From IMG/VR virus record IMGVR_UViG_2684622582_000001, positions 1 through 7,931 of that record: 7,931 bases of DNA. One strand, 5' to 3'. The stretch's first letter is position 1, and every line of letters begins with the position of its first letter. Below the pieces are notes generated by a model that worked only from the letters and a program-made list of their open reading frames with translations, was not told the origin of the DNA and did not search any database. Positions 201-7,931 of the stretch are shown piece by piece. A program made the position numbers and the translations under genes. The stretch is from a virus (Duplodnaviria > Heunggongvirae > Uroviricota > Caudoviricetes).

Positions 201-824
201 TTATGCGACCTCGGAAGGAAGTCCAATCATCTTATTCAAATCTTCTACCCGTAAAGCAGGAAGTGCTGTACTTGCTTTATCTGCTTCTTTTGGTAGCAAC
301 TCTTTGCTTTCAGGCCAAACTTCAATAAGTCGCTTAACTGTTGTGACTGAGTTCAAAGCAGCCCATACATTTGATTCGATATCCTTTTTCTTGGCTTCAA
401 GTTTTTGTTGCAATGCGCAGATTTCATCAAACCTTTTTGTTATTTCGTGTTCTGCGCTAAACATGCATTTATCTTTGGTCGGAGTAGGGAGCAATATATC
501 TTCGCCGTTGCCGTCTTTCCCATATGAATACCAGCCAACCCTTCTGCCAGATACAGTCAGATAAATTGAAGTTGAACGGGCATCGCATGAGTAAAATGAA
601 CATCCCAGCTTTTCAAGTTCTTCGCTTATAGCCATTAACTTGGATGATAACTGATCCACTTCCTCAGTTTTCTTTTTACCGCCAAACGCAACAACTCTGG
701 CGTCAAGTGCAAGCTGGTTATTTAACTTTGTTACTTCTTTAAGTTCAGTGAAAACCCCAGACTTAATTAAAGCGTTACGAGCGATTATCTCTTTCATTCT
801 CGTTGTTAAGCGGATTGATGACAT
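201..824 (-). CDS. Hypothetical protein (207 aa), accessory gene distal to N in the leftward operon; function unknown
   Basis: Long minus-strand ORF (track 201..884). Start is chosen at the ATG at 822-824 (MSSIRLTTRMKE...), 11 nt after the N stop at 836-838, with a purine-rich GAGAGAA upstream; the track's upstream Met would overlap N by about 48 nt. No transmembrane segment or motif I can recognise. The coding region is visibly more AT-rich than the flanking N and repressor genes. Confidence 0.6.
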   Translation of the reverse strand: MSSIRLTTRMKEIIARNALIKSGVFTELKEVTKLNNQLALDARVVAFGGKKKTEEVDQLSSKLMAISEELEKLGCSFYSCDARSTSIYLTVSGRRVGWYSYGKDGNGEDILLPTPTKDKCMFSAEHEITKRFDEICALQQKLEAKKKDIESNVWAALNSVTTVKRLIEVWPESKELLPKEADKASTALPALRVEDLNKMIGLPSEVA

Positions 825-835
825 ATTAATTTCTC

Positions 836-1135
836 TCAAATAAGTGGTTTGCTGCCTAATTTCATTTTCTGGCGACCAACACAAGTCACACCCATTTCAC
901 TGCGTGGCTTGCGGTAGTAAATACGGTTCTGTTTACGCTCGACTTCATCTGCCTTCTTGCTGAGAAGGCTGCCAAGTGATGCTGCTTTGTCTGCTCTGAC
1001 GCAACCAGAGAGCTTTAGCGCAATCTTCCTCGCCAGTCGCTGTTCTTTCATTGCCTGTTCACGTTGAGCCTGTCTGCGTGCTCTGCGGCGATTTCTGGCG
1101 TTATCGTCAGCCAGATATGTAATGACTACTGTCAT
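836..1135 (-). CDS. N: N-family transcription antitermination protein
   Basis: 99-aa minus-strand ORF. The C-terminus (RKQNRIYYRKPRSEMGVTCVGRQKMKLGSKPLI) closely parallels the lambda N C-terminus as recalled (RKNQRTWYSKPGERGITCSGRQKIKGKSIPLI). An N-terminal arginine-rich motif (NARNRRRARRQAQREQ) is present. GGAGG RBS (revcomp of 1141-1145) sits about 5 nt upstream of the ATG. Position is immediately downstream of pL/nutL. Confidence 0.85.
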   Translation of the reverse strand: MTVVITYLADDNARNRRRARRQAQREQAMKEQRLARKIALKLSGCVRADKAASLGSLLSKKADEVERKQNRIYYRKPRSEMGVTCVGRQKMKLGSKPLI

Positions 1136-1427: not shown

Positions 1428-1455
1428 GGAAAGAAAAAAGGGGCGAATGCCCCTT
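1428..1455 (-). terminator. Rho-independent terminator at the end of the repressor gene
   Basis: Stem GGGGC(1440-1444)/GCCCC(1449-1453) with loop GAAT, extendable by AA/TT pairs. On the minus strand it is followed by TTTTTTCTTTCC (plus A-run 1428-1437). The hairpin overlaps the repressor stop codon at 1454-1456. Confidence 0.6.
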
Positions 1456-2104
1456 ATGGAAGGTTTGCTATTTTTGCATCGACAACTACACCGATGATTT
1501 TGCAGTTCCCGTTGATCTCAATCATCGGATATTGTGGGTTAAGTGGTTTTAGAAACCTCCTGCCAGCATCAATAACTAACTTCTTGAAAGTTGCCTCGTT
1601 TTCTCCTTCGAGCTTTGCCACTACCAGCTTCCCATTACGAGGTTCTACTTCAGGATCGACGAGTATTATCATCCCTTCAGGGATGCTAAGACCGGCTGGA
1701 GCCGTCATCGAATCACCTTTTACGTCCAGCCAAAACGAATCTTCTGAACAATCTACGGTTGTATCGTACCAGTTATCTATTGCACGCTTATGATATGGCT
1801 CTACAGCTTCCATCCAACATCCTGCGCTTACCCAACTAATTAGAGGATACGAACCTCTTGGATCATGCCTGCTGTGATAGGCAATGTTTGAAAGACTATC
1901 TTCTCCTTTCAACAAGTAATCAGGGGAGCACTGCAAAGCCTTGGCTAAGGCCAATAGGTTTTCGCCATTGGGCTCAGTTTCAGAACGCTCCCATTGGGAA
2001 ATAGCAACATTAGACACGCCAACCATCTTGCCAAGGGCAGCCTGCCTAATCTTGAGTTCTTTTCTGCGAGCGCGAATACGCTCACCCATCAGTTGTGTAT
2101 TCAT
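1454..2104 (-). CDS. c2: Phage repressor, P22 c2 type (HTH N-terminal domain plus LexA-like S24 self-cleaving C-terminal domain)
   Basis: 216-aa ORF that is near-identical along its length to the P22 c2 repressor as I recall it (MNTQLMGERIRARRK...KIIGVVVDAKIANLP). HTH region (QAALGKMVGVSNVAISQWER) is present. C-terminal domain carries the S24 Ser/Lys dyad context (GDSM ... KLVVAKLEG). Divergent from cro across an operator region. Confidence 0.95.
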   Translation of the reverse strand: MNTQLMGERIRARRKELKIRQAALGKMVGVSNVAISQWERSETEPNGENLLALAKALQCSPDYLLKGEDSLSNIAYHSRHDPRGSYPLISWVSAGCWMEAVEPYHKRAIDNWYDTTVDCSEDSFWLDVKGDSMTAPAGLSIPEGMIILVDPEVEPRNGKLVVAKLEGENEATFKKLVIDAGRRFLKPLNPQYPMIEINGNCKIIGVVVDAKIANLP

Positions 2105-2478: not shown

Positions 2479-2757
2479 ATGGAACTTACAAGTACTCGCA
2501 AGAAAGCGAATGCAATTACAAGCAACATCCTGAATCGAATTGCTGTACGTGGTCAGCGAAAGGTTGCTGATGCATTAGGGATCAATGAATCGCAAATTTC
2601 GCGATGGAAAGACAGCTTTATCCCAAAGATGGCCATGCTTCTGGCTGTGCTGGAGTGGGGTGTTGAAGACGAGGAATTAGCGGAGCTGGCAAAGAAAGTA
2701 GCCATGGTGCTGACAAAAGAAAAGCCTCAAGACTGCTGCAACAGTTTTGAGGCCTGA
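2479..2757 (+). CDS. cII: CII-family transcriptional activator (lambda cII / P22 c1 analog)
   Basis: 92-aa product from the ATG at 2479 (MELTSTRKKANAITSNILNRIA...). Aligns by eye with lambda CII (VDKSQISRWKRDWIPKFSMLLAVLEWGV versus INESQISRWKDSFIPKMAMLLAVLEWGV here). The upstream sequence AAGGAAATACTTACATATG matches the lambda cII ribosome-binding region as recalled. The track's start at 2392 would read through nutR and is rejected. Confidence 0.9.
   Translation: MELTSTRKKANAITSNILNRIAVRGQRKVADALGINESQISRWKDSFIPKMAMLLAVLEWGVEDEELAELAKKVAMVLTKEKPQDCCNSFEA
2512..2525 (-). promoter_or_regulatory. Candidate CII-binding TTGC-N6-TTGC repeat (pRE -35 region), leftward
   Basis: Minus strand reads TTGC-TTGTAA-TTGC (revcomp of 2512-2525), the spacing of the lambda pRE CII site (TTGC-N6-TTGC). 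It lies inside the 5' part of the cII-like gene, as in lambda. No convincing -10 hexamer was resolved by eye. Confidence 0.4.
2713..2753 (-). terminator. Leftward rho-independent terminator within the cII 3' end (oop-RNA-like terminator)
   Basis: Extended hairpin GCCTCAAGACTG-CTGCAA-CAGTTTTGAGGC (2724-2753, one G-U pair). On the minus strand it is followed by TTTTCTTTTGT (plus A-run 2713-2723). It ends 4 nt before the cII stop, mirroring lambda's oop terminator. Confidence 0.5.
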
Positions 2758-2791
2758 TGTAGAAAGACTGGATCAATCCACAGGAGTAATT

Positions 2792-2953
2792 ATGACAAAA
2801 CGTCGTAAGAAATACCAGGAAAAAGAAGAGATTCGACACCCTGATTCACCTGAGGGATTAGTGGTAGCCGCAGCAAATAACAGGGCGTTCGCAGAGCGCC
2901 TTGTTGGTGTTTACAGACTAGCCAAAGCAGGAGTGAAACATGGGCGTCGTTAA
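2792..2953 (+). CDS. Hypothetical small basic protein (53 aa) between the cII-like gene and the O-like gene
   Basis: In-frame ATG at 2792 preceded by CAGGAGTAATT (AGGAG RBS); product MTKRRKKYQEKEEIRHPDSPEGL.... It overlaps the O-like start by 14 nt. No recognised homolog; lambda has no gene at this position, so it could be spurious. Confidence 0.35.
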   Translation: MTKRRKKYQEKEEIRHPDSPEGLVVAAANNRAFAERLVGVYRLAKAGVKHGRR

Positions 2954-3761
2954 GTTAGCTGATTACAGGCCTCAACTGGAGGTCGTGGAGCATCGCGTGG
3001 CAGATACCGAAGATGGTTTCATGCGCGTTGCTAACGAGATTACCGACAGTCTGCTGATGGCTGATTTAACCGTCCGGCAGTTGAAGGTGATGCTCGCTAT
3101 CATGCGCAAGACATACGGATTCAATAAGCCGATGGATCGACTCACAAACACGCAGATAGCAGCCATGACAGGTATTCACCACACTCATGTTTGCGCTGCC
3201 AAGCGCCAGCTTATTGAGCGTAAATTCCTCATTGCTGATGGCGTGAAAATCGGAGTGAACAAGGTGGTTTCGCAGTGGATTAGCCAGGACAGCTTAACAT
3301 TAGCTAAAACAGCTAATAAAACATTAGCCGAGTCAGCTAATGGGTATAAGCCAAGTCAGCTAAACACAAAAGACAATATACAAAAGACAATAAATACAAA
3401 TACCCCCTTACCCCCTAACGGGGGCGGCGATGGGCAGGTTAAACCTGAACGTCGCAAGGCAGAACGCATCGACTACGAATCCTTCCTGAACGCCTACAAC
3501 ACCGAAGTCGGTGACAGACTTCCACATGCTGTTGCGGTCAACGAGAAACGCAAACGCCGCCTGAAGAAAATCATCCCGCAACTGAAAACGCCAAACGTGG
3601 ACGGTTTCAGAGCGTATGTCAGGGCGTTTGTACATCAGGCCAAGCCGTTTTACTTCGGAGACAACGACACGGGCTGGACGGCTGATTTTGATTACCTGCT
3701 GAGAGAAGACTCGTTAACGGGAGTTCGGGAAGGGAAGTTTGCAGACAGGGGGATTGCATGA
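2940..3761 (+). CDS. O: Replication initiator, lambda O-like (P22 gene 18 analog)
   Basis: 273-aa ORF with AGGAG RBS (2927-2931). N-terminal region ([38 protein letters not shown]) parallels the lambda O N-terminal domain (ADLTKRQFKVLLAILRKTYGWNKPMDRITDSQLSEIT as recalled). Iteron repeats lie inside the coding sequence. Stop overlaps the helicase start (ATGA at 3758-3761). Confidence 0.9.
3280..3424. other. Candidate replication origin inside the O-like gene: iterons, AT-rich tract, GC-rich inverted repeat
   Basis: About four tandem ~24-bp units sharing the core (T/C)AGC(T/C)AA, for example ACATTAGCTAAAACAGCTAATAAA (3297-3320) and ACATTAGCCGAGTCAGCTAATGGG (3321-3344). These are followed by an A-rich tract (3366-3405, ACAAAAGACAATATACAAAAGACAATAAATACAAATA) and the inverted repeat CCCCC-TAAC-GGGGG (3411-3424). 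Same architecture as lambdoid ori inside O. Confidence 0.6.
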
Positions 3762-5134: not shown

Positions 5135-5214
5135 CCATCTACATCACTGAGCTAATAACAGGCCTGCTGGTAATCGCAGGCCTTTTTATTTGGGGGAGAG
5201 TAAATCGTGGTTGA
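5131..5214 (+). CDS. Possible 27-aa hydrophobic peptide (not in the supplied ORF track)
   Basis: ATG at 5131-5133 overlaps the helicase stop (ATGA), with AAGGGG 8 nt upstream. Product [27 protein letters not shown] has one predicted TM helix. Its TGA (5212-5214) overlaps the GTG start of the next ORF. Very short, so the call is speculative. Confidence 0.2.
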
Positions 5215-5413
5215 GTTGATTTTCTCTGCATTGAGGCTTCTCGGTGCTCTGTGGATGGTGGCGACGTTCATTGTGGTTGCTGGCTGTTTTGTCCGGTTGG
5301 TAGGCGAAGGTAAAGACCTGGTGGGTGTGATTTTCGGTAGCATTCTCCTGTGGGTGATTATCGGTGTTGCGCCTGTCGCTGTAGCAAAAATGGCGTGGCG
5401 TTTTGTGAGTTGA
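5207..5413 (+). CDS. Small predicted membrane protein (68 aa, two hydrophobic helices)
   Basis: GTG start at 5207 preceded by GGGGGAGAG (5192-5200). Product has two hydrophobic stretches (LIFSALRLLGALWMVATFIVVAGCFV and LVGVIFGSILLWVIIGVAPVAV). No homolog recognised. Confidence 0.55.
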   Translation: MVELIFSALRLLGALWMVATFIVVAGCFVRLVGEGKDLVGVIFGSILLWVIIGVAPVAVAKMAWRFVS

Positions 5414-5430
5414 ACTGAGGGTAAGTATCG

Positions 5431-5739
5431 ATGGACGAATCAAGAAAGCAGTTTGAGGAATACGTTGCCAAAAAATTGAAATTACCATTCGAGATGATAA
5501 CCGAGGCAAGAAATGGTGATAGGTACTTCGCATTTTCAAGCATGGATATTCGTCACTCCTTAAATGAGTGGTGGACTTTATGGCAGGCATCGCGAGCAGT
5601 TATCGAGATTGAGCTGCAAAAGCCAAAGAAAGGCCCACTTCCCGGTGATTATCACATTGGCTATGACTCAGGTGCAGAATCGCAATACGAAAGCGATGTA
5701 GAGGCTATCCGCGCCGCTGGAATCAAAGTGAAGGAGTGA
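5431..5739 (+). CDS. Hypothetical soluble protein (102 aa)
   Basis: ATG at 5431 with GAGGGTAAG upstream. Acidic and soluble-looking product (MDESRKQFEEYVAKKLKLPFEMITEARNGDRYF...). Stop (5737-5739) overlaps the RBS and start of the next gene. No homolog recognised. Confidence 0.7.
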   Translation: MDESRKQFEEYVAKKLKLPFEMITEARNGDRYFAFSSMDIRHSLNEWWTLWQASRAVIEIELQKPKKGPLPGDYHIGYDSGAESQYESDVEAIRAAGIKVKE

Positions 5740-5741
5740 GC

Positions 5742-5927
5742 ATGAGTCGACGAAGTAGATTTTTGGGGTTTGTAATATTCCTGTCCTGCACTGGTTACAT
5801 CGTAATCTGGTCAATTTCGAACATTGACCGTGGCGGGGAATATCTCATTGTAATGTTCTTTCCTTTGTTTCTTGGGTGGTACGCCGCAAGGTTGCTGGAA
5901 GAATGGGGTTACAGGCATAAAAAATAA
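5742..5927 (+). CDS. Small predicted membrane protein (61 aa, two hydrophobic helices)
   Basis: ATG at 5742 with AAGGAG RBS at 5731-5736; the track's GTG at 5736 sits inside the RBS and is less likely. Hydrophobic segments FLGFVIFLSCTGYIVIWSI and YLIVMFFPLFLGWYAA, with a basic C-terminus. Confidence 0.6.
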   Translation: MSRRSRFLGFVIFLSCTGYIVIWSISNIDRGGEYLIVMFFPLFLGWYAARLLEEWGYRHKK

Positions 5928-5938
5928 AGGAGTGTTCA

Positions 5939-6349
5939 GTGAAGCAAACAATATTCCTCCGAACTAAGCAACAACAGCAAGCCGCAATCAACGCCATCCT
6001 CGCAACACCACTCGATAAAGACAAGCCAGTCACCATCCGCATTATTGACTACAAGCGCAACCTTGATCAGAACGCAAAATTTCACGCGATGCTGGCGGAT
6101 ATCGCACGTCAGGTTCAATGGTGCGGCAAATGGTTAAAACCGGAACAATGGAAGGTTTTGTTGATTAGCGGTCATGCAGTGGCAACAAAACAGGAAGCTG
6201 ATGTTTTGCGCGGCCTTGAAGGCGAATTCGTCAACATTCGCGAAAGCAGCGCGCAGATGAGTGTGAATCGTATGGCAAGTCTGATTGAGTACACGACAGC
6301 ATGGGCTATTGGTCAGGGTGTCAGATTTACCGACAGGAGGTACGAATGA
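5939..6349 (+). CDS. ninB: NinB-family protein (recombination/Orf family)
   Basis: GTG start at 5939 with AAGGAG RBS (5927-5932). 136-aa product whose central region ([34 protein letters not shown]) parallels lambda NinB as recalled (LDQNRKLWACLGDVSRQVEWHGRWLDAESWKCVF). Position follows the replication genes. Confidence 0.85.
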
Positions 6350-6522
6350 GACGACAGCGACGAAGTTTCACCGACATCATCTGCGAAAACTGCAAATACC
6401 TTCCAACCAAACGCTCCAGAAATAAACGCAAGCCAATCCCAAAAGAATCTGACGTAAAAACCTTCAATTACACGGCTCACCTGTGGGATATCCGGTGGCT
6501 AAGACATCGTGCGAGGAAATGA
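6346..6522 (+). CDS. ninE: NinE-family protein
   Basis: ATG at 6346 overlaps the ninB stop (ATGA) with a strong AGGAGG RBS (6334-6339). 58-aa basic product [40 protein letters not shown]..., which I recognise as NinE-like. The track's start at 6301 lies inside ninB and is rejected. Confidence 0.8.
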
Positions 6523-6926
6523 CAATGCTTTTAATTCAACCTGGATTTGGCCTTAGCATCAAAAAATGGCACATGTTTGGCGAGAAAAAGTCTCAACGAA
6601 AAATGGTGCTTATCAAGTTGCCATTTATCAGTATTTGTTGGCTAAACAGGGAGTCAGCAAATTATTTGTCTACATGCGCCAGAGCAGCATTTAACGACCC
6701 TGAGTGGTTTGTAGAAAACCATCACGCTGTTCGTCAGGCAAAGAGAAAGGCCAAAACGACATACATGAAGGCGTATCGAAAAGCATGGAAAGAACACCGC
6801 GATCGATACCAACAAGACATGGAAAAGCTTGAATCAGAAAACATGGAATTAAGACGAAAGCTCGGTGAAGCAAAACGAGACATTGATGCTTACAAGCGAC
6901 TTTTTAATGGTGAAAGCCATGCCTAG
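6519..6926 (+). CDS. Hypothetical protein at the P22 ninX position (between ninE and ninF), C-terminal coiled-coil-like region
   Basis: ATG at 6519 overlaps the ninE stop (ATGA) with GAGGAA upstream. 135-aa product; the C-terminal half is strongly charged and heptad-like ([41 protein letters not shown]). Start is uncertain, and an alternative-frame 42-aa ORF (6566..6694) sits inside it. Confidence 0.5.
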
Positions 6927-7095
6927 CCCATCCCAAACCCTTCAATACCAGAAAGAAAGCGTCGAGCGGGCTTTAACGTGCGCTAACTGCGGTCAGAAGC
7001 TGCATGTGCTGGAAGTTCACGTGTGCTCCGATTGCTGCGCAGAACTGATGAGCGATCCGAATAGCTCAATGTACGAGGAAGAAGACGATGAATGA
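6919..7095 (+). CDS. ninF: NinF-family protein (Cys-rich, zinc-binding-like)
   Basis: 58-aa product [58 protein letters not shown], near-identical in pattern to lambda NinF as recalled. Start is chosen at the internal ATG at 6919, not the track's 6865. Confidence 0.85.
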   Translation: MPSPSQTLQYQKESVERALTCANCGQKLHVLEVHVCSDCCAELMSDPNSSMYEEEDDE

Positions 7096-7810
7096 GTTAA
7101 TAAATGGCAACGCCATCAAAATGACAAGCATTGAAATCGCTGAGTTGGTGGGAAGTCGTCCAGATAACGTAAAAATATCAATAGAGCGCCTGGCTAAATC
7201 TGGAGTTATTCAACTTCCTGCATTGCAGGTTTTCGAAAAAATCAATAACTTAGGACTGCGCCGTAGTGTCGAGGCTTACGTCTTCGAAGGCGAACAAGGT
7301 AAGCGCGACAGCATTATTGTCGTTGCCCAGTTGTCGCCGGAATTCACCGCTCGTCTTGTTGACCGTTGGCGAGAGCTTGAAGAAACTGCGGTTAATATCC
7401 CCAAAACACTACCAGAAGCGTTGCGCCTTGCTGCTGATCTTGCTGAGCAGAAAATGCAACTGGAAAACCAGCTCGCAATTGCCGCACCTAAAGTTGAGTT
7501 TGCCGATCGCGTTGGCGAGGCCAGCGGAATTTTGATTGGAAACTTTGCAAAGGTTGTTGGTATTGGTCCAAACAAACTGTTTGCGTGGATGCGCGATCAC
7601 AAAATCCTTATTGCTTCAGGTTCCCGGCGCAATGTGCCAATGCAGGAATATATGGATCGCGGCTATTTCACAGTGAAAGAAACAGCGGTCAACACAAATC
7701 ACGGAATACAGATATCGTTCACCACAAAAATCACCGGGCGTGGTCAACAGTGGCTGACCAGAAAGCTGCTCGATAACGGAATGCTGAAAGTAACAGGGGA
7801 GGCTGCTTAA
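7088..7810 (+). CDS. Rha-family regulator / antirepressor-like protein with C-terminal KilA-C (Ant) domain
   Basis: 240-aa ORF whose ATG at 7088 overlaps the ninF 3' end, with GAGGAAG RBS. The N-terminal pattern ([23 protein letters not shown]) resembles Rha-type phage regulators. The C-terminal region ([40 protein letters not shown]...[15 protein letters not shown]) resembles KilA-C/Ant domains. Domain assignment is by recalled pattern only. Confidence 0.7.
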
Positions 7811-7931
7811 TGGCTAAACCAGCGCGAAGGAAATGCAAAATATGCAAGGAATGGTTTCACCCGGCATTCTCAAATCAGTGGTGGTGCTGCCCGGAACACG
7901 GAACTCAGTTAGCACTCGAACTACAAAGTAA
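7810..7931 (+). CDS. ninG: NinG (Rap) family recombination-associated protein, 5' partial (runs off the window)
   Basis: ATG at 7810-7812 overlaps the preceding stop (TAATG). The 40 codons open to the window edge encode [40 protein letters not shown], matching the lambda NinG N-terminus as recalled. Absent from the ORF track because it is truncated. Confidence 0.8.

Follow-up and report, generated by a model that had tools for sequence, protein, structure and literature searches.

The roi gene of a lambdoid phage carries a candidate Roi operator and a candidate IHF site within its own coding sequence

We identify the gene at 7088-7810 of the phage DNA analysed here (7,931 bp, hereafter the window) as roi, a known accessory nin-region gene of lambdoid phages. 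The best explanation overall, to which we assign a probability of roughly 0.75, is that roi holds an operator in its own coding sequence, which Roi would bind together with IHF at an adjacent site in an autoregulatory manner. The perfect palindrome at 7217-7229 is most likely this operator, a reading drawn from sequence comparison across the family.

The window comes from a lambdoid phage (P22/HK620-like) and represents its immunity-replication-nin segment. The repressor gene cI is followed by P22-type cro, cII, O, a DnaB-type helicase gene and three small ORFs, and these by ninB, ninE, a NinX-like ORF, ninF, roi and the start of ninG. The features that surround roi, and roi itself, are as follows.

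201-884, minus strand: Nmad5 (nucleotide-modification-associated) gene, E=6.5e-70
836-1135, minus strand: 99-aa arginine-rich ORF, without a family, to the left of the repressor gene
1454-2104, minus strand: S24-type cI repressor
5207-5927, plus strand: three small ORFs (68, 102 and 63 aa) from the helicase gene to ninB, no Pfam family, two of them membrane-like
6525-6926, plus strand: NinX-like ORF of 133 aa between ninE and ninF, PHROG 1511, no Pfam family, coiled-coil-like
6919-7095, plus strand: ninF (58 aa), the upstream neighbour of roi, Pfam NinF 1.4e-13 and PHROG 672, real start at the ATG at 6919
7088-7810, plus strand: roi coding sequence, 240 aa and stop, from the ORF list, identity with HK022 and H-19B Roi, and Pfam and PHROG matches
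7810-7931, plus strand: 5' part of ninG, which runs off the window end, Pfam NinG 1.6e-10 and alignment with H-19B and lambda NinG

The pair formed by the Nmad5 gene and the arginine-rich ORF is also present in a related E. coli MS20659 prophage, and HK022 has close copies of the first two small ORFs (68 and 102 aa). The NinX-like ORF is also missing from lambda, where ninE adjoins ninF. Many Stx phages, for example PA28 (815-1489 of the examined locus), have an extra gene of about 675 bp annotated as antirepressor upstream of NinX/ninF, and these phages possess two KilAC/Ant-labelled proteins in the nin region.

The 240-aa ORF that the preliminary description had placed between ninF and ninG, with overlapping start and stop, is there in both the ORF list and the sequence. 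At its 5' end the overlap is ATGAATGA, in which the roi ATG (7088-7090) lies within ninF and the ninF TGA occupies 7093-7095; at its 3' end the overlap is TAATG, in which the final A of the roi TAA (7808-7810) is the first base of the ninG ATG (7810-7812). These overlaps are not special, because all nin genes of the window overlap their neighbours likewise (e.g., ninB/ninE and NinX/ninF). In lambda, ninF (42269-42439) directly adjoins ninG (42429-43043), as had been said, and alignment of the junction with lambda gives a precise, gene-exact difference of 722 bp with an ATG at either boundary. With slashes for the boundaries, lambda reads GAAGATGATG / GCTAAACC and the window GAAGACGATG / AATGAG...GCTTAATG / GCTAAACC.

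The window Roi is 91% identical in amino acids to HK022 Roi over 240/241 aa (91.9% for the DNA) and 86% identical to the Roi of H-19B (GenBank AF034975), where the annotation puts Roi between "nin orf-58-B" (ninF) and "nin orf-204" (ninG). Near-identical roi DNA was found by megablast in 975 of 5426 complete E. coli genomes, about one in six, and in 214 phage records at a coverage of at least 80%; the phages with a match include HK022, HK620, HK75, mEpX1/2, CUS-3, Gally and many Stx phages. The window Roi also has a listed 100% identical counterpart on seven IMG/VR contigs. A Roi listed as 100% identical to that of the window also occurs on JAEZCC010000011.1, a 3.9-kb contig labelled "MAG: Bacillota bacterium", which is most likely a mis-binned fragment of an enterobacterial phage.

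The gene is therefore not an unrecognised insertion, since roi was named in HK022 in 1996 and is annotated at the exact place in H-19B. Gene, position and domain make-up are already known from the literature and from GenBank annotations since 1996-1998, and the finding as first noted is ordinary, because roi was described in 1996 and is present in about one-sixth of complete E. coli genomes. A comparison of Stx phages has described roi and its conserved context (PMC3430580), and a study of the Gally prophage lists roi among the regulators (PMC9928086).

Across hundreds of phages a single slot houses the roi cassette, which is followed by ninG in some and by hkbD/rusA in others. The gene lies between P and Q, directly after ninF, in the window, HK022, H-19B and 77 of 80 related loci; the order is ninF-roi-hkbD(DUF1364/HNH)-rusA in 73 of the 80 nearest IMG/VR loci and ninF-roi-ninG in a few. 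Phage vB_EcoP-611R6 has an unrelated 89-aa ORF in the slot after ninF (junctions at 9390-9404 and 9660-9675 of the examined locus), and this cassette shares its junction motifs with roi, GACGATGA at the 5' end and TAATGGCTAA at the 3' end. Because alternative cassettes have common junction motifs, the slot after ninF is a mosaic junction with cassette exchange, and roi, as we read these alignments, is one common occupant of it. The two motifs resemble recombination boundary sequences, and the occupants of the slot are roi, the 89-aa ORF or, in lambda, nothing.

These features bear on the proposal that the gene is a moron-like insertion. Juhala et al. reportedly defined a moron as an extra gene with an autonomous promoter and terminator, often of atypical composition. 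No promoter-like site was found in 6300-7931 and no convincing terminator near roi, the terminator-like matches being inside the ORF and at background frequency; the search for a LexA box near roi gave none within one mismatch. The composition does not shift at roi, with a GC content of 0.45-0.52 vs 0.42-0.49 in the flanks. Translational coupling ties roi into the pR delayed-early operon, and the moron-like label does not hold for a gene that lacks its own promoter and terminator, matches its flanks in GC, is coupled to its neighbours and sits in a mosaic slot. A recent moron-type insertion into a lambda-like ninF-ninG junction, bringing an independently controlled function that benefits or takes over the host, is thus highly improbable. 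The precise, gene-sized block relative to lambda is consistent with it, but roi is coupled as tightly to its neighbours as every other nin gene in the window, the identical slot recurs in hundreds of phages, and the motifs that it shares with alternative cassettes point to modular exchange.

Roi is a two-domain protein, with the following parts.

7115-7393, plus strand: N-terminal winged helix-turn-helix domain, Rha-like, aa 10-102
7160-7201, plus strand: predicted recognition helix, aa 25-38, with the putative specificity residues N27, I30, S31 and R34 on one helical face, in both models
7409-7513, plus strand: long connecting helix, aa 108-142, in the full-length AF2 model
7463-7771, plus strand: KilAC/ANT domain, Pfam aa 126-228

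The KilA-C/Ant-like C-terminus that had been noticed from the letters is borne out by Pfam, where ANT/KilAC (PF03374) matches aa 126-228 with E=9.2e-33 and 113.3 bits vs a gathering score of 25.3, over model positions 1-106 of 108. The Rha-like N-terminus stands in part: Phage_pRha (PF09669) matches aa 12-99 of the window allele with E=5e-4 and 20.9 bits, below its gathering score of 29.9, but precomputed PF09669 matches exist for sister alleles at 93% identity and for all distant two-domain homologues. Together with the winged-helix fold, these matches lead us to call the N-domain Rha-like, though the window allele is sub-threshold. PHROG 63, "anti-repressor Ant", matches the window Roi at 2e-96; searches of NCBIfam, PADLOC and PDB (by sequence or profile) gave no match.

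AF2, with an alignment of 124 sequences, returned a two-domain model with pLDDT 77, and pLDDT 85 for the N-domain alone. The N-domain model consists of a strand (11-13), helices 14-21 and 25-38, a beta hairpin (45-67) and helices within 68-102; the KilAC model has an HTH-like helix pair (150-170), a hairpin (194-215) and a final helix, and resembles MerR-type DNA-binding folds. As modelled, both domains look like DNA-binding winged helices joined by the long helix, which is possibly a dimerisation element. A Foldseek search of PDB with the Roi model gave only E-values above 0.05.

Two short elements lie in the part of roi that encodes the N-domain.

7217-7229, no strand assigned: perfect 13-bp palindrome CCTGCA-T-TGCAGG inside roi, candidate Roi operator
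7240-7252, plus strand: IHF consensus AATCAATAACTTA with an A-tract in front, a match to WATCAANNNNTTR

The palindrome is 10 nt upstream of the IHF consensus, which is the only match to WATCAANNNNTTR in the 7931 bp of the window. All 72 alleles compared, those of HK022 and H-19B among them, have this consensus at one fixed place in roi despite differing flanks, and the position is kept in the Pantoea, Yersinia and Serratia homologues; by this match, roi contains a candidate IHF binding site. Clerget and Boccard, in 1996 (J Bacteriol 178:4077), in the only experimental work known on the orthologue, reportedly found that HK022 Roi is a DNA-binding protein whose site is within its own gene and closely linked to an IHF site; IHF is said to stabilise the binding of HK022 Roi, and Roi to block lytic growth in IHF mutants. 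Further copies of CCTGCA-T-TGCAGG were found neither in the window nor in 16.7 kb of a related prophage. At the place of the palindrome, H-19B-type alleles carry CCTCAA-A-TTGAGG, the HK022 allele carries CTGCA-T-TGCAG, and the commonest E. coli allele type carries an imperfect palindrome, CCCCCA-A-TGGTGG.

The palindrome was surveyed in 91 family genes, among them 80 diverse Rha-KilAC loci that are 42-61% identical to a Pseudomonas member, and perfect palindromes with arms of at least 5 and a spacer of 1 were counted. A first alignment-based scan of viral sequences gave almost only near-identical roi genes, a second used an alignment headed by a distant member, and a scan of genome contigs for family diversity gave only 12 loci. 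Of the 147 family palindromes, 42 have their centre at the codon that aligns with residue 46, and the runner-up position has 11, which all share a single sequence. Among non-redundant genes, 37 of 55 have a palindrome at this codon, whereas resampling synonymous codons according to the usage of each gene predicts 3.5. At least ten distinct symmetric sequences occur there, with bases compensated. Across the family, selection acts on synonymous sites to keep a palindrome at the residue-46 codon.

Other palindromes in the family were also recorded. The 36 family genes without a palindrome at the residue-46 codon include a subfamily whose helix reads HDNVLKTIRAL or HDNVLRDARSL. In 12 of the 36, a palindrome lies instead where the KilAC domain is encoded, at the codon aligned with Roi residue ~151, with compensatory variants (GCATC-NNN-GATGC and GCGTC-NNN-GACGC), which by its pattern may be a relocated site. 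Family peaks at positions 18, 91, 164 and 195 each consist of one core sequence that varies only in the spacer or arm ends, and were not taken as elements because descent or a conserved peptide motif explains them. The window roi has two more perfect palindromes, CAAACAAACTGTTTG and TTTCACAGTGAAA, at 7569-7583 and 7666-7678, which makes three in 723 nt vs ~0.66 expected; family-wide, these two are represented by one or two near-identical sequences, so they have no support from covariation.

Compensatory changes keep pairing whatever the sequence, and this would also suit an RNA or single-strand DNA hairpin (e.g., one for processing or pausing) or a site for another factor. In most variants whose spacer is 3 nt long, a G faces a T at the innermost position, which in RNA is a wobble pair, and TTTT follows the palindrome in E. 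coli alleles. However, the 71-nt region around the palindrome folds no better as RNA than its shuffles (z = -0.55), and a 1-nt spacer is too short to form a loop, although 43 of 55 palindrome-bearing genes have a complementary innermost pair. A hairpin would not be expected to have a one-to-one relation to four exposed helix residues, with the plausible pairings Lys-G, Asp-C and Arg-G, and published Roi binding falls within its own gene. We therefore consider it improbable that the palindrome is such an element and not a Roi operator.

Residues 27, 30, 31 and 34 share one face of helix 25-38, and there is a one-to-one correspondence between these residues and the palindrome half-site, as listed below.

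Half-site CTCA: residues 27/30/31/34 are NRTT, 16 genes
Half-site CTCC: residues NRTR, 5 genes
Half-site CACC: residues SRTR, 10 genes
Half-site CCCC: residues KQSR, 12 genes
Half-site CGCC: residues DRSR, 2 genes
Half-site CTGC: residues N[IV][SA]R, 4 genes (NISR in the window)

No pair of genes with different half-sites has these four residues in common, while 168 of 231 pairs with equal half-sites and less than 50% identity elsewhere do. The Yersinia and Buttiauxella homologues, which are outside the set from which the code was derived, obey it. A Pantoea protein (2479-3205 of the examined locus) has a Roi-type N-domain, the palindrome CGCCA-G-TGGCG and the same IHF consensus, and its N-domain is fused to a C-domain unrelated to KilAC. 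This fusion looks like domain shuffling around a constant DNA-binding module. The correspondence supports sequence-specific DNA binding by the Roi N-domain. In the code that we propose, residue 27 would read base 2 (Asn-T, Ser-A, Lys-C, Asp-G) and residue 34 would read base 4 (Thr-A, Arg-C).

Alleles of roi are near-identical in codons 1-20 and 91-240 and fall into discrete types in codons ~22-63, which encode the recognition helix and the wing. Synonymous and nonsynonymous divergence both concentrate in codons ~22-63, so roi is an intragenic mosaic; the per-codon synonymous diversity used here is not dN/dS, as codons with an amino acid change were counted as nonsynonymous only. There are at least four discrete block types in E. 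coli phages. In the window, the variable block at 7150-7360 (roi codons ~22-90) takes in the palindrome as well as the recognition helix and the wing. At somewhat better than even odds, Roi and many of its Rha-KilAC relatives would have an operator in their own wing codons, a residue-to-base code, and a specificity cassette of ~200 bp that recombines between otherwise identical roi genes. An intragenic operator with a recognition code may be new, no description having been found beyond the single binding experiment with HK022.

In the proposed autoregulation, infection or induction would lead to synthesis of Roi from the pR delayed-early transcript; Roi would then dimerise and use its N-terminal winged helix-turn-helix domain to bind the palindrome within roi. 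IHF would bend the neighbouring DNA and stabilise the Roi complex, and the complex of Roi and IHF might conceivably act as an autoregulatory roadblock that limits further roi expression. Such control would fail in hosts that lack IHF, where excess Roi would then block lytic growth, which is the published HK022 phenotype. Several points speak against an operator. The helix and the palindrome are ~50 nt apart and inherited together, and their correlation could partly be linkage. The half-site centres are just 7-8 bp apart, below most HTH dimers. In addition, the commonest E. coli allele type has only the imperfect palindrome, and 36 family genes have none at that codon.

The target of the KilAC domain could be a repressor, the SOS machinery or DNA. 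The first of these underlies the suggestion in the preliminary description of cross-talk between prophages; in the form considered here, the Roi KilAC domain would inactivate the CI-type repressor of its own or co-resident heteroimmune prophages and cause cross-induction. P1 Ant1/Ant2 and many proteins with an antirepressor annotation contain the KilAC/ANT domain, and trans-acting antirepressors are known in polylysogens (PMC3121763). For Roi itself, though, the role is argued from family names. Unlike SOS- or Mnt/Arc-controlled antirepressor genes, roi is without a promoter-like site or LexA box, and would therefore be expressed only once its own repressor is already gone. P22 Ant, P1 Ant1, Gifsy GfoA/GfhA and N15 AntC belong to the functional class of antirepressors. 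A regulated promoter of its own (LexA-, Mnt/Arc- or sRNA-controlled), which marks this class, is absent from roi, whose start overlaps ninF. Both Roi domains resemble DNA-binding winged helices, with an N-domain specificity that tracks a DNA palindrome, and many Stx phages have a separate "antirepressor" gene two genes upstream besides roi. An antirepressor function is accordingly unlikely, and automatic labels such as "anti-repressor Ant" on roi, which are without experimental backing, should not be taken as function.

A slightly less doubtful alternative, still one that we would not expect, is that the KilAC domain damps the host SOS response, probably via RecA, while the N-domain regulates phage genes, so that the induction of co-resident prophages would be tuned indirectly. 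The isolated KilAC domain of AriS blocked the induction of SOS genes, an activity kept in two homologues (PMC9043618), and Roi has the pRha-KilAC architecture. Against this, the evidence comes from distantly related Firmicutes proteins and was dependent on overexpression, and the Roi KilAC model resembles MerR-type DNA-binding folds. A modulating effect on SOS is compatible with autoregulation by Roi and IHF and does not exclude it.

If the operator and the code hold, they would account for the confinement of roi allele differences to a short internal block, and would provide specificity variants for experiments; the family would be a natural set of orthogonal, self-targeting DNA-binding modules. 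The gene is upstream of Q and hence, in Stx phages, of stx. Insertions of IS629 into roi have been noted and proposed to change toxin output (PMC4587872), an idea that a defined operator and IHF site would make testable.

Among known systems, HK022 Roi is very close to the window Roi. Residues 64-240 of the two differ at one position (T101/A), and HK022 roi follows ninF with the same ATGAATGA overlap, an equal position of the IHF consensus and the core CTGCA-T-TGCAG. The differences are residues 22-63 (recognition helix and wing), which belong to another allele block, and the downstream genes, hkbD (HNH/DUF1364) and then rusA, compared with ninG in the window. The Stx phage H-19B has the ninF-roi-ninG order with identical overlaps, but has the helix KRHDNVKRTIETL and the palindrome CCTCAA-A-TTGAGG, compared with CCTGCA-T-TGCAGG in the window.

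Rha of P22/phi80 has an N-terminal wHTH weakly similar to that of Roi (E=5e-4), and Henthorn and Friedman, in 1995, are said to have found that Rha blocks phage growth in IHF mutants, the same phenotype as for Roi. The P22-type Rha in a related prophage has no palindrome at the equivalent codon and no KilAC domain. P1 Ant1/Ant2 and KilA have the PF03374 C-terminal domain in common with Roi, while their N-domains are AntA/B or KilA-N, in contrast to the Rha-like one of Roi. AriS of the Listeria phage phi10403S likewise combines a variable N-terminal regulatory domain (pRha in some relatives) with a C-terminal KilAC (PMC9043618); it is distant in host and sequence, has an AntA/B N-domain, and is known to inhibit SOS. 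Finally, pSK1 Par and RacA, with winged-HTH domains that bind short palindromes or repeats, are among the closest known systems.
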